A stretch of DNA of 64,000 bases from IMG/VR virus record IMGVR_UViG_3300010003_000012; one strand, 5' to 3'. Positions 36,035-48,520 of this stretch are shown here, one piece after another. This stretch comes from an uncultured virus (IMG/VR IMGVR_UViG_3300010003_000012) (taxonomy: Duplodnaviria > Heunggongvirae > Uroviricota > Caudoviricetes). The notes beneath the pieces are model-generated. The model saw only the letters and a program-made list of their open reading frames with translations, was not told the DNA's origin and made no database searches. A program made the translations under genes and the position numbers. Positions within the stretch are counted from its first letter, which is position 1, and each line of letters opens with the position of its first letter.

Positions 36035-36454
36035 TTATTTCTGATACTTGTCAGTAATTTTGTCGATTTGATCCGTCTTCTTATCAATCAAGTCAGTTAA
36101 GTCGTCGATTTCGTCTGTATACTTATCTACGTCCTTGATATTCTTTTGTACTTCTTCAATGTTGCTTGCGACACCCGTCACTTTAGACATTATTTCCGTT
36201 ACAATTGAACCCACCAATACTTGGACATGATCCGGAGCATCCTTGCCGATTTGCTGAACCAAACGATCAGCCAATGGTTTGACTTGAGAAAGTGTTGTCG
36301 AAGCATTCGTTAACTCACGACCACATGATGCTAATTCCGCATCAATCTTATCTGCTACACGGTCAATCTTGGACTGTGTAATCTGATCAATCTCTTTAAT
36401 AACTCCATCAATTTCATGACATAATTCACGAACTGCACCTTTACCTACGATCAT
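36035..36454 (-). CDS. Helical coiled-coil hypothetical protein
   Basis: AGAGG RBS; repeated ID..TD heptads. Confidence 0.7.
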   Translation of the reverse strand: MIVGKGAVRELCHEIDGVIKEIDQITQSKIDRVADKIDAELASCGRELTNASTTLSQVKPLADRLVQQIGKDAPDHVQVLVGSIVTEIMSKVTGVASNIEEVQKNIKDVDKYTDEIDDLTDLIDKKTDQIDKITDKYQK

Positions 36455-36503
36455 ATTAATTACCTCTTTCTGATTGTGTTATGATTTATTTGCAATACTT
36501 TCG

Positions 36504-36533
36504 TTTAAGTGAAGTTGTGTCACTTCACTTAAA
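36504..36533. terminator. Hairpin after the yorF-like gene
   Basis: TTTAAGTGAAGT-tgtgtc-ACTTCACTTAAA. Confidence 0.55.
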
Positions 36534-36552
36534 CTGTTGCATTGATTACTGA

Positions 36553-37916: not shown

Positions 37917-38549
37917 TTAGTTTTTGTTTTGATAATGAACTGTCATCGCAAACTGTACGAAGATCAATCCAATGTTTAAGAACTCAGTTGTAATGATCCA
38001 GATATTCGTTCCTGTGATGATCATGTTGCCTGTTACGCTCAGTAGTCCGAGTCCAAGAACAATGAATAACCAACGGCTAATTCCGGTTGCATCCTTAACA
38101 CGATTCAAGTGAATGATTTGAGGAATATACGCTGTTAGAAGTGCGATACTTCCGACTAGCTGAATTCCATCTCCAATGTCCTCTGCGCTCTCTCCGCTAA
38201 TCATTGCATAGACAAGTACTGCCAACATAACAAAGAATGCTTTTGCGACGTTGTGATTAATCTTGATCTTTTGACGGCGAAGCTTCTTGCAGTAGATGAC
38301 TAATCCAAGAGTGTACCAAGCACCGAGCGCATTGAGAGACTGAGTGATCATGACAGGAAGAGATGTGTCATGAAGAATCATATTGACTAGAATGGATGTA
38401 CATCCGATTCCGATCATTGTCCAGAACAGAAGTGAAATTCCTGTTGGGTTCTTTGTCTTGTGAAGCTTTCCAATCTGAGGAGCATATCCACCAAGCAGGA
38501 GAGCTGATCCGATCGTTTGGATCAATAGTCCGAATGATAATAGTGTCAT
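37917..38549 (-). CDS. PQ-loop repeat membrane transporter (SWEET/PQ-loop superfamily)
   Basis: About 7 TM helices; two repeats YAPQI..L.K.K..TGIS and YIPQI..L...K..TGIS. Confidence 0.8.
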   Translation of the reverse strand: MTLLSFGLLIQTIGSALLLGGYAPQIGKLHKTKNPTGISLLFWTMIGIGCTSILVNMILHDTSLPVMITQSLNALGAWYTLGLVIYCKKLRRQKIKINHNVAKAFFVMLAVLVYAMISGESAEDIGDGIQLVGSIALLTAYIPQIIHLNRVKDATGISRWLFIVLGLGLLSVTGNMIITGTNIWIITTEFLNIGLIFVQFAMTVHYQNKN

Positions 38550-38564
38550 ATTAAATGTCCTCTC

Positions 38565-39113
38565 TTAAATCGTTTGTAGTCCGTTTGATGGACTAGCATG
38601 TTTGATTTCGTTTGATTGATAATCCTTGTACTCGATGGCGTAAAGCTCTTCCATTGCTTCTAGCTCTACTGGGAATCCGTTCACTTGGCTAACTGCATTT
38701 ACGCCTTCAGATTGGCTCATGACACGCATCATTGCAAGGTTCATTCGAATTTTGGTAGGCATGCCTTTGTTTACAGAAATATCTCTTAAATCTTGTTGAA
38801 GAGTGTCGTAGATGTTTGGTACATCGATTACTTCTCCCACGATCGCTTCTTCAGACTGTGAATCATTTGACTCCTCTTCACGAACAACTGCATCAAGAAT
38901 TTCATGCTCTACAAGTTTTCCTGAAATCTCCGCTCCGACCAACGGCTTCTTGTTGATGACCTCTAGTAGATCACGAGTCAATGATTCCATGTGAATCTTT
39001 ACAAGCTCATTCGTGTCCTGCGCTCCTGTGAAGAGTAGAAGGTTCTGTAAACCCTCTTGTTGAAGCATTGTGTTGTAATCAATCTCAATATTTACTGTCA
39101 TTACGCCTTTCAT
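38565..39113 (-). CDS. Hypothetical protein
   Basis: Co-oriented acidic ORF; start uncertain. Confidence 0.65.
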   Translation of the reverse strand: MKGVMTVNIEIDYNTMLQQEGLQNLLLFTGAQDTNELVKIHMESLTRDLLEVINKKPLVGAEISGKLVEHEILDAVVREEESNDSQSEEAIVGEVIDVPNIYDTLQQDLRDISVNKGMPTKIRMNLAMMRVMSQSEGVNAVSQVNGFPVELEAMEELYAIEYKDYQSNEIKHASPSNGLQTI

Positions 39114-39230
39114 ATCCATCGCCCTCTCTTTGTGCAATACTTTTGTTTTAATGATTTTTATACGTCTTTCTCTCTCAATACCTTACCTTCTTATTATAGA
39201 GAAGATCATTCTTTATTGCAATACTTTTGT

Positions 39231-39788
39231 TTAGATTTTATTTAAGTTTTTCATCAACCGGAGATACATCGTTTGTAGCAATGGCTCCTTAGATGCGATC
39301 AGTTCTTCCAGACTAATCCACTGGCTATATCCTAGCTTTTCAAGCTCTGTTCCATCACCAATAGCAGGTACCTCTTTGCATCCACGATCGAGATCAACGG
39401 CAAACAGATACATAGTGCTATCGGATGCTTTCGATGGCTTTGAGGTGCCAAGATACATAATATTATCAAGAGGTACTTCAAATCCGCCCTCTTCAATTAG
39501 CTCACGCCATGCAGTGACCACCGCAGGCTCTCCTTCTTTATCCATGCCACCCATGACGGCACCAAGCTCTGGCATATCAGAGTGTGCAGGACAAACTTCA
39601 AATCGACCAAGGAACTCCATTTCAGGATATCCCCACTGGCTCATCGTCTTGGATCGGTACGGTAAGATTGCAACGCCTTGATTATTACACCATGGAGCTG
39701 TCGTGTAGATGTACTTCTCTCCGCCAACGGTCGTTTTCTCTTGAACGGCAAGCCATTTAGAATGAAAAAGCTCAATAACATTAGACAT
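39231..39788 (-). CDS. Nudix hydrolase (ADP-ribose pyrophosphatase-like)
   Basis: Nudix box GGMDKEGEPAVVTAWRELIEEGG; overlaps the NMNAT stop. Confidence 0.82.
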   Translation of the reverse strand: MSNVIELFHSKWLAVQEKTTVGGEKYIYTTAPWCNNQGVAILPYRSKTMSQWGYPEMEFLGRFEVCPAHSDMPELGAVMGGMDKEGEPAVVTAWRELIEEGGFEVPLDNIMYLGTSKPSKASDSTMYLFAVDLDRGCKEVPAIGDGTELEKLGYSQWISLEELIASKEPLLQTMYLRLMKNLNKI

Positions 39789-40380
39789 TGCGATTCGCCT
39801 CTTCAGAATAAATTCTCTTATACCATTCGATGTCAAGAAGTTCACTCTTGAGGCGACGGAAAGTCTCTAGACCGGAAATACTTTTAGGAACGTTCTCACA
39901 CCATTCGCTATAGTCATCTTTGCACATTAGTTGTCGAATGCTAGTCGCTGATCGATCGTTTCGAGCAATGACGAGATGACTGATTCCCTTAATCTTTTCA
40001 GGATTAAACCATGAGCCACGCTCTTCGTCATTACCATAGATGAAGCAATCAACATTTTCAGTAATTGCATAATGACTCTTCCACATTTCAATTTTTTGGA
40101 GTAAAAAGTCACCCCAATCATAACTGTGATCTTCTTCGTGTGTCATGTCATCTGTATGGCAAATTAAAAGCTTTCCACCTTTAATCTCTTCGTCAAAAAC
40201 ACGACGAATCAAATTCATGCGAGTATGCAGATTAAACGGGTTGCGAACCGTTCCACTCTCCGTTGAAGATCCTACCATAAGCAATACCTTGTCACACACA
40301 CTGAGCGACTTTCTGATCATATTTTCATGGTCTAGATGTAACATCTGAAAGCGTCCTAGTACAAATCCTAATTTAAACAT
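39781..40380 (-). CDS. Nicotinamide-mononucleotide adenylyltransferase (NadM-like)
   Basis: GRFQ.LH..H, VGS......RNPF....R, SATSIR, W...VP. Confidence 0.88.
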   Translation of the reverse strand: MFKLGFVLGRFQMLHLDHENMIRKSLSVCDKVLLMVGSSTESGTVRNPFNLHTRMNLIRRVFDEEIKGGKLLICHTDDMTHEEDHSYDWGDFLLQKIEMWKSHYAITENVDCFIYGNDEERGSWFNPEKIKGISHLVIARNDRSATSIRQLMCKDDYSEWCENVPKSISGLETFRRLKSELLDIEWYKRIYSEEANRNV

Positions 40381-40394
40381 TTTAACTCCTCCGA

Positions 40395-41825
40395 TTATGA
40401 GTATTTAGCTTCGAATTCTTTTACAAGCTCATTGATTGAATCAGATAGGATGATGCGATCCTGTAGATCTTTTCCTAAATTCGACAATGCAATCTCCTTC
40501 GTTTCTTTCCATTCCGGCACATGTGTAAATGGTTTATTGTCATATGTCGACATGTCTAATCCGTGAAGATAAACGGTTTGATACTCAGAAGTTAATTCAG
40601 CATGCCAACTTTTTTCTCCAGTTGTTTGTTCACGATCTACTACTAGTTGTCCATCTGGATTTCGATAAACATAGACGGCATCTGGAATTGAACGCTTCAA
40701 TGCATCCATGCCAAACTTCATACGTGGCGCTCCGTTCGAGAATGCTGTCTTCATTGCGAATCCTAGCGTATCACGATTGATGTCATTGTAGAATCCGCCA
40801 CCAACACCATAACTAACGAAGCTTAATGGTACCTGACGCAACATGAAGAAGTAGTCTGTTCGTTGAATCATCTTGAAGCTCATGCCCTCACCGATGATCG
40901 CACTTACATTCTTGAGACCATGATGATCGACCTTTTTATAAACTTTTACAACCTGCTCATCAACGTCTCCACTATCCGGACGAATGACGATATGAACTCC
41001 TTTTGAGTCTGCATAGTTTGCCAAAGGAACAAGATACTCATCGATGAAGCGATGTGCATCATATGTGTCGATTACCAATGCAACGACACTCTCTCCGGCA
41101 TCTGCTGTCGCATCAATCGCATGCACGTACCCATCGTATTCAGCGTCATATTGCTGTGTAACTTTATGCGCCAACGCACTGATAGACGATACATTTGCTT
41201 CAGGCGTATGGATCAATGAGTGCAGATCGTCTGTCCCAAATAAGAACATGTTCCAAGCTGTACTTGCCCAGTAAGCATCTTCTAGACTACGATGACCACG
41301 GAATCCAAAGCTGTGTACTCGAGATAGGAAGCTGTCATCATATCCGTACTCCTTCTTCGTATCTTCGAGATACTGACGAATGCGGAATGCTTCGGTAGCT
41401 GTTCCTGATGGGAATGATGACTGCAAGAATACTCCTTCAATCCAAGTAACTAGCTCTCCGAATCCTTTTACCGTGTTGCGAACCTGTGCAAAAGGAGTTC
41501 CTTTAGGACACCAAGTTCCTTCCGGTAGAGATTGGACATGGATCGGGAAGAATCCGTTATGCTCATCAACCACCTTACGAAATAACTCGATCGGTGCTTT
41601 CACCTTGATTGTATTTGATGCATTTTGAAGCTGATCAATCATTTCGTGTGTGATTTGAACAGATAAAACCTCATTCACCATCTCAGCGAATCCGTACAAA
41701 ATCATTCCTGAAGCACGATTGTAGATGTGTGATACTTCGTAGTCTGTGTTAATCTTTAGTCGTTCGTGACTCAAGTTGTATGCGTCTGTAAGCATAAGTG
41801 GATTTGATCGTAAGTCTTTTAACAT
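40395..41825 (-). CDS. nadV: Nicotinamide phosphoribosyltransferase (NadV/Nampt-like)
   Basis: TDAYNLSH, HSFGFRG, IDTYD, IRPDSGD, YGVGG, RDTLGFAMK. Confidence 0.88.
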   Translation of the reverse strand: MLKDLRSNPLMLTDAYNLSHERLKINTDYEVSHIYNRASGMILYGFAEMVNEVLSVQITHEMIDQLQNASNTIKVKAPIELFRKVVDEHNGFFPIHVQSLPEGTWCPKGTPFAQVRNTVKGFGELVTWIEGVFLQSSFPSGTATEAFRIRQYLEDTKKEYGYDDSFLSRVHSFGFRGHRSLEDAYWASTAWNMFLFGTDDLHSLIHTPEANVSSISALAHKVTQQYDAEYDGYVHAIDATADAGESVVALVIDTYDAHRFIDEYLVPLANYADSKGVHIVIRPDSGDVDEQVVKVYKKVDHHGLKNVSAIIGEGMSFKMIQRTDYFFMLRQVPLSFVSYGVGGGFYNDINRDTLGFAMKTAFSNGAPRMKFGMDALKRSIPDAVYVYRNPDGQLVVDREQTTGEKSWHAELTSEYQTVYLHGLDMSTYDNKPFTHVPEWKETKEIALSNLGKDLQDRIILSDSINELVKEFEAKYS

Positions 41826-41876
41826 GTGAATCCCTCCGGAATATTAATTGCAATACTTTTGTTTTAATATATTTTT

Positions 41877-42389
41877 TTAAACTGTGATGTATGGAATTTG
41901 CATTTCTTGATCGTACTGAGGCATATACCGATTGTTCTCCGTAGCGATTACAGGGAACTCGAACAAGACAACCTCTTTCTTCCCAGAACCTTCTTGATAG
42001 CCGTATCCTAATACGCATTCTGTATCCAACATGCTTCGAACTTCTTTTAGAAGCGATTTCTGCATGAGTAAGAATTGCTCTGACTCGAATCCGACTTCTT
42101 TTCCGTAACTCTGAAGGTCTTGGAACGAGTTGTAAAGTATCTCTCCCTCAATCTTGTAAATGTGAGTCGGATAAACTCGACCTTCAATTCCCAATGCTTT
42201 TTCAATCTCCGAAACTGTCTGCATTTCTTGATCAAGAGTGATGATGTCGCTCACGATGTTTGCTAATGCATTAGATAACTTACGCTCTCGCTCTGCTTGA
42301 TAAGCTTTAAGGTGATGAGTTAGTGCTTTTAGTGCTACTTCGTCCATTCTTTTAAGCCGATCTGTTTCTTGAAGTTGAATCATAATCAT
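41877..42389 (-). CDS. Hypothetical protein
   Basis: Co-oriented, overlaps the upstream SLOG gene. Confidence 0.65.
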   Translation of the reverse strand: MIMIQLQETDRLKRMDEVALKALTHHLKAYQAERERKLSNALANIVSDIITLDQEMQTVSEIEKALGIEGRVYPTHIYKIEGEILYNSFQDLQSYGKEVGFESEQFLLMQKSLLKEVRSMLDTECVLGYGYQEGSGKKEVVLFEFPVIATENNRYMPQYDQEMQIPYITV

Positions 42390-42795
42390 TGTTATTTCCC
42401 CCGATGTCTTGTTTTTGTATTTGTGTGATAAATAATGAGATACCGTATTTCTCAGCCAATTGGATCATACTCTTTGTCCCAGTACTTTTACCGTCCCAGA
42501 AGCAAATGCAGTAACTTTCAATTGAACCGCTTGCGTAGATTGCCATTTCCATGTTTCTAAGATGACCTGCCGAATATCCTCTTGAATCCCAATTGGCATT
42601 CAATACTTTCAGCTTCGTCCCGAACTCTTTGGCGAATCTCTCTCCAAGCTTATCTGCGCCATTGGCACCGCCACTCACCACCTCAAGCTCGTCCATTTTA
42701 ATTCCTGATTGATCAAGAACTTCTTGAACTCTCTGCTTGAGGAGATCGTAGTCTGAAAAGTGCCTGCTACCTGCGATGATCATTCTCTTTTTCAT
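42352..42795 (-). CDS. SLOG-family protein (DUF2493/YspA-like)
   Basis: IIAGSR.F.DY, VVSGGA.GAD, W...G..AG..RN..M, FWDGKS.GT. Confidence 0.85.
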   Translation of the reverse strand: MKKRMIIAGSRHFSDYDLLKQRVQEVLDQSGIKMDELEVVSGGANGADKLGERFAKEFGTKLKVLNANWDSRGYSAGHLRNMEMAIYASGSIESYCICFWDGKSTGTKSMIQLAEKYGISLFITQIQKQDIGGNNNDYDSTSRNRSA

Positions 42796-43526: not shown

Positions 43527-44383
43527 TTAAGGCTTCACGTAAACATTCACAGTCTTTCTTCCCCAATTAATGGCTTGACCATGATCACGCATGTAAATAT
43601 CGATGCGATGACCTTTGATCGCTCCACCCGTATCTCCGGCAATTGCCATTCCGTATCCTTCAACATATACGGTCGACCCTAAAGGGATGACCGATGGATC
43701 AACAGCAATTACTCTTGCGTTCGGATTTGCCGATAAATTGATTCCCGTAGCTGTCACTCCACTACATCCGGCACAGCTAGCCGTGTATGCACTGGAGCTT
43801 ACACTCACTGCTGTCCAGTCTTTATATGAGCCATTACCGCTACTACTCTTCTCTCTCTCAGCTTCCACTTTAGGTTTCGGTTCTGTCGAAACATCGACGA
43901 CACGAGTAACCTTTTGCGACACTTCGTTCTGAGGTGCCGGAGTTGCGGAAGCCGTAACGGAATGGCTCCTTACTTTTTTACTGACGCTTGTAACTTTGTC
44001 TGCTTTAGCATCTTCTCAAGCTCGTCCGCATTTCGACGGCTCGACTTGAGATCTCGGTTCAGCTTTTCATTGTCCTTGAGCAACTTGTTGTACTTGGATT
44101 TCATATCCTTTTTGTCTTTCTTCATGATGTCGATTAGTCGATTGGTTTCATGCAACTCTGACTTGAGTGTCTTTGTTTCCAGTTGCATCTTGTCAATCGT
44201 ACCTTCTTGGCGTTTTAACGCACTCTCATAGTGAACAATCTTCTCTTGAGTCTTATCCATGGCAATCTTCTCATTCACATACAGACCACTCGTAACGAGC
44301 AGTGCCAAGCTAAATGATACTTTCACTAATGGACTAGACGCTGTACCGAATACACTTCCTCTCTTATTCTTGATTTGGTTCAT
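43527..44383 (-). CDS. Secreted or membrane-anchored coiled-coil plus 3D-domain protein, encoded in two frames joined by a probable -1 frameshift at 43973-43979
   Basis: Frame 0 (44383-43970) gives a hydrophobic segment and coiled coil ending GTA AAA AAG TAA; the -1 frame is open into SAYTA...TATG...IAVDPSVIPLGS...AGDTGGAIKGHRIDIY (3D domain). Confidence 0.8.
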
Positions 44384-44472
44384 ATTATCAATTCCCTTCT
44401 GTGGGTTTTCCACAAGTTCATCGTAACATAATTTGCAATACTTTTGTTTTACGATAATGTTACAAATCAAGC

Positions 44473-47069: not shown

Positions 47070-48323
47070 TTAGTGCAATACTTTTTCTGCCAACTCAATT
47101 CTGCGACGGATATAGAAGTATGTTGATTCGTTCTTGCTAAGGTTAAATCGTTCGATAACGTATGCGATTGCCTCATCTTGCGAAGCTCCTTCTGCCATCT
47201 TTTCTTTTGCGTAGTGTACTTGTCCGCTATACGATACGTTGGTTGCCGTCAAATATTCATGTCCGGCTAATTTTGCGATACGAAGGATGCGTTGGTTAAC
47301 GTTATTCCAAAGAATCTGCGCATTGTTACGAAGACCACGAAGGATGTATTCACTCTGAGCAATCTTATAGCTACGACTTACGAGACCTTTCGTACTTACA
47401 TACTTCTCGTCGAAGTCCATTGCTTTACGGATCATACGTGCAGTAGTTGAAGAAATCGGTACTTCACGAGCCGGAGACACTTCATCTTCCGTTCTCATCT
47501 CAGGAATCTTGATGATAAGGTTGTCGTAATCTACGTCGCTCTCTTTGATATTGATTAACTCTTGGAATCTGTTTTTGTTACTCACGCCATCAAAGATGAG
47601 GTTCAAGATTACTCCGTCCTGTGCATTTTCGGCATACTCACTTAAGTAGTCGATTTCTTTTTTGTCAAAGAACATATTTTCCTCTGCCTTCTTATCGAGG
47701 AATGCATCGACAGCATCACGGTTATTATATTGGGTAGCGATGTTCACCTGATCAAGATTCTTATGCTTGATTGCAAACTCGATATATTGCTCCATCGTAG
47801 AGATAGAGTTTTGAAGACTACGGATAGTTGTTGCTTTTAATGTTTTTAATAACTCTTCGAATTTTACACTATCAAAATTATATAGGTCTTCGTTATAAAG
47901 TTTTTCAATAACTGCAGTCTTATTAAATAAAAATCTATTTACTCGCTTAGTCTCTTCAGCGTATGGCTGACCTGACTTAGTTCTATGCTGTTCTAAGAAT
48001 AGTTCTTTAAATTCTGGATTAAAAAAGAAGAATACCTCTTTGTCATTTTTGCTCGTACTAGAAGCAATAAAATGCTCTGGGTTAAATGAATCGTCGCCAA
48101 CTTTATTAAAAATTACTTGTAAGAAGAGAATTGCCTCATCGCTATTTAAATGATCAATAGATTTGGTTTTAAAAACTTTCTTAGCGTTCTCTTCTCCAAT
48201 TACTTCTTTCAATGAGTTCTCAACTGATTTCTTTAACATCCCAATCTTAGAAATTCCGTTTAACGTTGAATCAAGTTTTTCCCTAATCTCTTGAAGTTTT
48301 GCATTGTTAATTTTAGTCGCCAT
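47070..48323 (-). CDS. MrpR/YopR-like master repressor (catalytically degenerate tyrosine-recombinase fold) with an N-terminal extension
   Basis: FNPEFKELFL...EKLYNEDLYNF...NAQDGVILNLIFDG....ELINIK..D...YSG resembles SPbeta YopR as recalled; no HxxR/H/Y catalytic set; motif copy upstream. Confidence 0.72.
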   Translation of the reverse strand: MATKINNAKLQEIREKLDSTLNGISKIGMLKKSVENSLKEVIGEENAKKVFKTKSIDHLNSDEAILFLQVIFNKVGDDSFNPEHFIASSTSKNDKEVFFFFNPEFKELFLEQHRTKSGQPYAEETKRVNRFLFNKTAVIEKLYNEDLYNFDSVKFEELLKTLKATTIRSLQNSISTMEQYIEFAIKHKNLDQVNIATQYNNRDAVDAFLDKKAEENMFFDKKEIDYLSEYAENAQDGVILNLIFDGVSNKNRFQELINIKESDVDYDNLIIKIPEMRTEDEVSPAREVPISSTTARMIRKAMDFDEKYVSTKGLVSRSYKIAQSEYILRGLRNNAQILWNNVNQRILRIAKLAGHEYLTATNVSYSGQVHYAKEKMAEGASQDEAIAYVIERFNLSKNESTYFYIRRRIELAEKVLH

Positions 48324-48520
48324 TTTAAATTTCTCCTCCATGTTTTTCTATCCATCCTATGTTTATCAAATAAAGTAAATCTCCGCTATGTATTTCCCTA
48401 TCTGATATCAATACTAATATATCCATTAGCAATTTGCAATACTTTTTCTTTATTTTTGTACTATTTGATTTAATAAAAGTATAATCTCTATACCTAAAAG
48501 CTCAACTCTCTATCGGTAAA

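Follow-up and report, generated by a model that had tools for sequence, protein, structure and literature searches.

The window analysed here, 64,000 nucleotides of DNA from an uncultured virus of the Caudoviricetes (IMG/VR IMGVR_UViG_3300010003_000012), belongs to a virus record of 131,790 nt that is complete and has direct terminal repeats. On its minus strand, with an ATP-dependent DNA ligase gene on one side and a nucleotide kinase gene on the other, lies a gene that is split between two reading frames (Table 1). The upstream frame, ORF1, reads GTA AAA AAG TAA at its 3′ end. The original prediction had placed an A_AAA_AAG heptamer directly before this stop, with the -1 frame open from the heptamer into a 3D domain and products of about 137 and 285 aa. 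On re-reading the sequence, the coordinates of the ORFs, heptamer and stop all held, the 150 codons of the -1 frame proved to be open and to match Pfam PF06725, and both lengths agreed with the translated frames, the 285 aa being that of the predicted fusion of ORF1 and the -1 frame.

Table 1. Features of the split gene and its upstream region (positions in the window).
Feature	Position	Strand	Remarks
17-nt repeated element copy	44434..44450	-	50 nt upstream of ORF1 start; likely repressor operator (SPBRE-like), putative
ORF1	43970..44383	-	ATG at 44383, TAA 43972-43970; 137 aa; ends Lys-Lys-stop
Basic N-terminus, then hydrophobic segment (about residues 16-37) and coiled-coil stalk (about 42-135)	within ORF1	-	from hydropathy and heptad pattern
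Slippery heptamer A_AAA_AAG	43973..43979	-	zero frame, in overlap of ORF1 and -1 frame
Zero-frame stop TAA	43970..43972	-	directly 3′ of heptamer
Hairpin GGAGCC-10nt-GGCTTC	43948..43969	-	drawable; not supported as conserved stimulator
-1 frame, 150 codons	43527..43979	-	low-complexity linker (about 43969-43809), then 3D domain; ends TAA 43529-43527
Three 3D aspartates	43599..43700	-	codons at 43700, 43634 and 43601; spaced 22 and 11 residues

The surroundings of the split gene consist of replication and NAD-salvage genes, and 2.7 kb upstream of it is an MrpR-like gene (47070-48341) with a match to the MrpR N-terminal domain. Because of this setting and the MrpR-like gene, the virus is probably an SPbeta-like temperate phage whose host belongs to the Bacillales. 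The 3D gene is the only one in the whole phage genome. A minus-strand cluster (37917-42795) encodes a PQ-loop membrane protein, a Nudix hydrolase, a cytidylyltransferase-like (NMNAT-like) protein, a member of the NAPRTase/NAMPT family and a SLOG protein, an NAD-salvage set that presumably resembles phage NAD-reconstitution counter-defence. A close relative of this phage group with shared gene order (L118; NZ_CP032366, 137.6 kb, circular) is deposited as a plasmid of B. wiedmannii, which suggests a phage-plasmid or an excised state.

We characterized the two halves of the gene. The hydrophobic segment of ORF1 is moderate (hydropathy peak 1.48). In the best register, 70% of the heptad a/d positions of the stalk are hydrophobic, and indels in the stalk family span 14 or 21 residues, that is, whole heptads. 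The 3D domain matches PF06725 with an E-value of 5e-24 (84.7 bits against a cut-off of 23.8) and B. subtilis YuiC with an E-value of 9e-15, and it keeps all three aspartates at the spacing of YuiC D129/D151/D162 (numbering from PMC4499186). YuiC has demonstrated muralytic activity that gives anhydro products (PMC4499186). By its sequence, the head encoded in the -1 frame belongs to the Sps/3D (YuiC/MltA-type) proteins, and peptidoglycan cutting is predicted for it. The segment of ORF1 for membrane anchoring or export (a predicted anchor or cleaved signal) would reach the polypeptide of the 3D domain only through the proposed frameshift.

Since a homopolymer site invites assembly errors, and since many relatives carry the gene in one frame, a faulty assembly or a decaying gene had to be considered. 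We compared the site across contigs of eight runs from eight studies, with divergence of up to about 4%; three IMG/VR records with 100% identical ORF1 are the same phage and were left out of the counts. Contigs of seven of the eight runs (seven studies; X5-X8, X9, X13 and X15) bridge the heptamer site, all with no indel; the contig from X19 spans the heptamer, ends 21 nt beyond it and is not counted among the seven. The original prediction had named an A7 run as a possible sequencing error, and none of the compared contigs has one, although rare variants drop out of contigs. In the contigs with a complete substitution table (X9, X13 and X15), positions 43979-43970 are invariant, while the two bases just 5′ of the heptamer vary and so do bases past the stop. 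Two linker indels in the variants, one reducing 81 nt to 39 and the other a +1/-1 pair, preserve the -1 frame. The nine changes listed for the 3D core in the contigs of X5-X8, whose substitution table has 53 further rows, comprise seven synonymous and two conservative substitutions and no stops. As judged from this synonymous excess and from the lack of stops among the listed changes, the 3D domain is intact and under purifying selection. Since contigs from seven studies bridge the site without an indel, the split gene is not an assembly error. With the same junction also recurring in five other lineages, an explanation by error or decay is hardly credible.

These five lineages (L095, L096, L013, L107 and L115) carry A_AAA_AAG at the same stalk/3D junction. 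Three of them were found without use of the heptamer, L095 and L096 via similarity to ORF1 and L013 via similarity to the 3D domain; L107 and L115 were picked up by scans in which the heptamer was obligatory and the ORF layout was left free. The first such scan, with a gap of 40-60 nt, returned no loci. Another returned seven loci (three from this phage, two already known, the new split locus L107 and one in-frame gene, L109), and another eight (the split locus L115, one in-frame stop, L112, five genes in frame and one spurious match). L109 was rejected as a split locus, being an in-frame gene with a chance K-K-V. In L112, at about 2035-2045 on the plus strand, the anchor-stalk ORF and the 3D domain share one frame with a single TGA between them (AAA TGA AAG), a candidate for readthrough or else a nonsense allele.

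In L095, ORF1 (P0017, on record from B. cereus-group genomes) ends CTA AAA AAG TAA, and in L096 it ends AGA AAA AAG TAA; each is followed by a -1 3D frame. Identity of these ORF1s is 43-45%, and both loci have the gene in synteny between ligase and kinase. L013 is the unrelated Exiguobacterium phage vB_EalM-132 (Herelleviridae, SPO1-like), in which a 118-aa anchor-stalk gene ends CTA AAA AAG TAA; its stalk is not alignable with ORF1 of our phage. The lack of a start codon explains why the -1 3D frame of vB_EalM-132 (L013 2411-2740, MH884511 about 36220-36549) was left out of its GenBank annotation. The junction of L107 reads TTA AAA AAG TGA, with weak stalk similarity to ORF1, and that of L115 reads GAA AAA AAG with the stop five codons later. 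The comparison of homologs that had been proposed as a check shows the heptamer and the frame offset kept in six lineages, with the stop directly 3′ of the heptamer in all except L115. The codon before the Lys-Lys pair varies (GTA, CTA, AGA and CTA in this phage, L095, L096 and L013) and is always A-final, and a pyrimidine follows the heptamer directly in 6/6 loci.

The heptamer is also rare in the phage itself. In-frame A_AAA_AAG occurs just six times in the 154 ORFs of at least 100 aa, accounting for 1.6% of 253 Lys-Lys pairs, and only the copy in the split gene has a -1 frame open for at least 60 codons. Because of this rarity and this single long opening, the arrangement is more than chance.

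A different view of the junction came from protein searches. With ORF1 as query, no relative was found in GenBank phages, plasmids, metagenome contigs or GTDB genomes, and a single-sequence search with ORF1 for longer forms found none among 707 candidates. A later stalk-only profile search did find them: 31 proteins, of which 11 are short, 18 are fused to a 3D domain and two are fused to PF07486. All 11 short relatives, several of which are query sequences or near copies, end KK despite upstream indels, while in the phage's own genome 5/154 ORFs do. When P0017 and P0020 are added, 13/13 clusters that are 36-96% identical to ORF1 end KK; 11 of these are known at the protein level, with the heptamer and the 3D partner assumed. 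The two PF07486 fusions (P0036 and P0037) join the stalk family to a SleB-like hydrolase in place of a 3D domain, which by sequence is a non-orthologous head exchange.

The frames could in principle be joined outside the ribosome, since slippage during transcription of the A6 run would give the same fused frame, and so would a phase switch from A6 to A7 in the DNA. Short A runs slip poorly in transcription, and this one has just six A and ends in a G that is conserved, a base that matters for re-pairing of tRNA-Lys but not for polymerase slippage. Together with the lack of an A7 variant in the compared contigs, this makes either process very unlikely.

The 3D half might also be a gene of its own. 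Gene callers predict a 131-aa protein from GTG 43922, an AAGGAG after the stop lies 10 nt before an ACG (-7.4 kcal/mol), and L107 has GTG codons near the junction. However, GTG 43922 is, as originally claimed, without an evident ribosome-binding site: its anti-SD pairing is -1.7 kcal/mol, the weakest when set against 14 neighbouring starts including that of ORF1 (-6.4 to -12.1 kcal/mol). This GTG is replaced in one variant contig, and the AAGGAG and the ACG are both altered in another variant. Upstream of the 3D core, L095 and L013 have no ATG, GTG or TTG, and the single candidate start in L096 and in L115 is located at the start of the core. Since GTG 43922 is SD-less, is replaced in a variant and is matched by no corresponding start in either L095 or L013, independent initiation is unlikely. 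Moreover, a free 3D half would be without any export signal, and we regard two separate genes as highly improbable.

We asked what could stimulate a -1 shift at the heptamer. A 3′ structure 5-8 nt downstream or a 5′ internal SD is common in -1 frameshifts without being obligatory. The bases of the stem-loop that had been proposed can pair, but the fold is not unusually stable (z from -0.1 to -1.2 in three downstream folds, and -0.7 and 0.0 in a further calculation), it begins 3 nt past the heptamer, and one variant contig alters two of its bases (43968 and 43953) without compensation. As it is also unconserved among the six loci, we rejected it as a stimulator. We likewise rejected a 5′ internal SD, since upstream anti-SD pairing is -0.6 to -4.4 kcal/mol and none is common to the six loci. 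No 3′ structure is shared among the loci either, with 1/12 z-scores below -2 (in L095). What they have in common is the heptamer, the adjacent stop in most of them and the 3′ pyrimidine, which is the better 3′ context for shifting on A_AAA_AAG.

A_AAA_AAG, the site used in dnaX, ranks with the most shift-prone heptamers of E. coli (PMC4066793, PMC5009743); there, shifting on it is about 0.3% when no stimulator is present and at most about 3.7% in the best 3′ context (PMC4066793). Because only the heptamer and the 3′ pyrimidine are kept, with no shared 5′ SD or 3′ structure, efficiency at the split gene is probably low and may be very low, about 0.3-4% by these figures from E. coli, whose tRNA-Lys set may differ from that of the host. 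Lys codon use in the phage (AAG 1591, AAA 1248) might reflect a host that has a second tRNA-Lys and in which shifting is weaker; none of the five tRNAs of the genome is a tRNA-Lys that could act as a phage-borne regulator. The ratio of the two products is likely strongly skewed to the short form and not near-equal.

Many relatives do without a shift. In-frame anchor-stalk-3D fusions include the SPO1 gene (L019) and the syntenic B. cereus-group orthologs L035, L091 and L118. Since they carry the same parts in one frame, the stalk-3D fusion is, as read from these sequences, a real protein form, and the split is the minority state. We saw it in one of 14 annotated 3D regions from phages or plasmids, and among 80 loci surveyed only in three copies of this same phage. 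Of the refuting conditions named in advance, an A7 run in other assemblies and homologs without the heptamer did not come out against the frameshift, although many relatives are fused in one frame; being without a short form, these relatives weaken the case for the stalk having a job of its own. A single-sequence model of one of them, P0031, has a confident long helix (residues 8-128) and a loose linker, fitting a predicted stalk; its 3D head is poorly modelled (pTM 0.31). In most members of the fused clade, L-K-K-x-K-A-D is kept at the point where the stalk ends. In the in-frame loci L035 (2877-2883), L118, L024 (2949-2955) and L124, A_AAA_AAG stands at the stalk end with a -1 stop three codons on. 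We considered the mirror idea that in-frame genes make a short form by a dnaX-like -1 shift and rejected it: most have no junction heptamer, and in 19 in-frame genes A_AAA_AAG makes up 12/94 Lys-Lys pairs by hand count, about the expectation from AT-rich codon use.

In a 40-row tree of 3D domains, a single clade for the six split loci was rejected (p-AU 1e-74). The tree has six changes of state, at least three of them forced by supported branches; its bootstrap is not fully settled, and L115 sits on a long branch. The three split loci with homologous stalks have heads from different parts of the tree; this suggests that heads were exchanged while the stalk-plus-slip cassette was kept, that the split arose repeatedly, or both. 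The scatter is also consistent with repeated landing of 3D domains out of frame by recombination, so that the frameshift would be a mere rescue and the short product a functionless by-product; that most relatives are in frame fits as well, and phage Ig-like domain extensions have been read by such a chance model (PMC5009743). Chance landings, however, would not choose the same heptamer, phase and junction six times, and the stalk clade keeps KK-stop in every cluster although insertion of a single base would repair the frame. We therefore judge mere rescue unlikely.

The 17-nt element upstream of ORF1 bears on when the gene is expressed. It occurs 31 times in the window (0.39 expected), at sites from 200 to 61246, with 30/31 copies on the minus strand and many just 5′ of genes. 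A near-identical stretch lies upstream of ORF1 in L095 and L096. The element is likely the operator of the MrpR-like protein. In SPbeta, MrpR binds an SPBRE-type element before the 3D gene yorM (PMC10516654); ten peaks are reported there, far fewer than the copies of the element here. Because this operator-like repeat is upstream, as for yorM, the split gene is probably silent in the lysogen and expressed during the lytic phase.

A programmed -1 frameshift, as originally proposed, is thus well supported by comparison, while its stem-loop stimulator is not. In the mechanism that we consider probable, the gene would be expressed in the lytic phase, and translation would mostly end at the TAA, yielding a predicted membrane-anchored coiled-coil stalk. 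A minority of ribosomes would slip back one base on the heptamer, two tRNA-Lys re-pairing in tandem from AAA AAG to AAA AAA, and would append the linker and the 3D domain, for which peptidoglycan cutting is predicted. The stalk would far outnumber the stalk-enzyme. As shifting appears to be low without a shared stimulator, this would ration a potentially lethal wall-cutting activity, rather than set a near-equal ratio, and keep it on the outer side of the membrane, on a stalk about 14 nm long, during phage replication. Surplus headless stalks would probably co-assemble with the long form as diluting partners.

The split gene has the sequence features of bacterial -1 frameshift sites (X_XXY_YYZ), stimulator excepted. 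It shares its heptamer with E. coli dnaX (tau/gamma), where the nested products likewise have a common N-terminal part; the variant with the stop directly after the shift site corresponds to the reversed dnaX arrangement (PMC5009743). Unlike dnaX, it is without an upstream SD or a conserved 3′ hairpin, its long form needs the shift, and it is a phage cell-wall gene known from sequence alone, not a replisome subunit. As in lambda gpG/gpGT and the Ig-like extensions (T3, A2, A118 and PSA), a minority of ribosomes would add a C-terminal domain, and relatives are either in frame or shifted. Those are virion or assembly proteins, whereas the split gene is surrounded by genes for replication and nucleotide metabolism, and the domain that it adds is a predicted enzyme. 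Like other Sps/3D proteins (YuiC, YocH, SPbeta YorM, phi3Ts SpsX and SPO1 gp2.8), it has the 3D domain with three aspartates; it differs in having no LysM, G5 or SH3b domain and in reading S-A-Y at the T-x-Y motif. The SPO1 gene has the same anchor-stalk-3D layout in one frame, whereas here the catalytic domain is out of frame.

Our search of the literature, subscription papers and supplements aside, turned up no account of such a frameshift; clusters of this kind might be listed in the GeneTack supplements (PMC3711429). None is named in the available text of PMC5009743, PMC4066793, PMC3711429, PMC1084345 or PMC6375668, the last being the vB_EalM-132 genome paper, which has no matches for frameshift or slippery. 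Phage frameshifts named in the available part of the frameshift review are almost entirely in virion assembly, and its first 300,000 characters name no wall enzyme and have no matches for peptidoglycan or transglycosylase. The sole experimental hint to a phage 3D role that we found is that sporulation and germination came slightly earlier when spsX of phi3Ts was overexpressed (bioRxiv 2020.05.06.055103).

More broadly, and as a tentative proposal that we hold to be somewhat less than even in probability, phages of Bacillota may repeatedly and independently have set a recoding switch exactly where the anchored stalk of a lytic-phase wall enzyme meets its catalytic head (A_AAA_AAG in this phage and an in-frame TGA in L112), with heads exchanged on a stalk-plus-slip cassette that is kept. 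Through mixed coiled-coil oligomers with few heads, translation would then set the dose of peptidoglycan cutting, and such switches would form a third major class of phage frameshift, next to those of tail chaperones and capsid/tail extensions. A frameshift that is conserved in a host-facing, non-structural wall enzyme would add a class of phage frameshift and would explain gene pairs that annotation splits or drops. It would also provide a stimulator-free A_AAA_AAG-stop site in Firmicutes, where the rules of shifting have been little measured. Because in-frame and split alleles occur naturally in syntenic relatives, the effects of dose and of the stalk should be separable, making the role of YorM, gp2.8 and SpsX testable.
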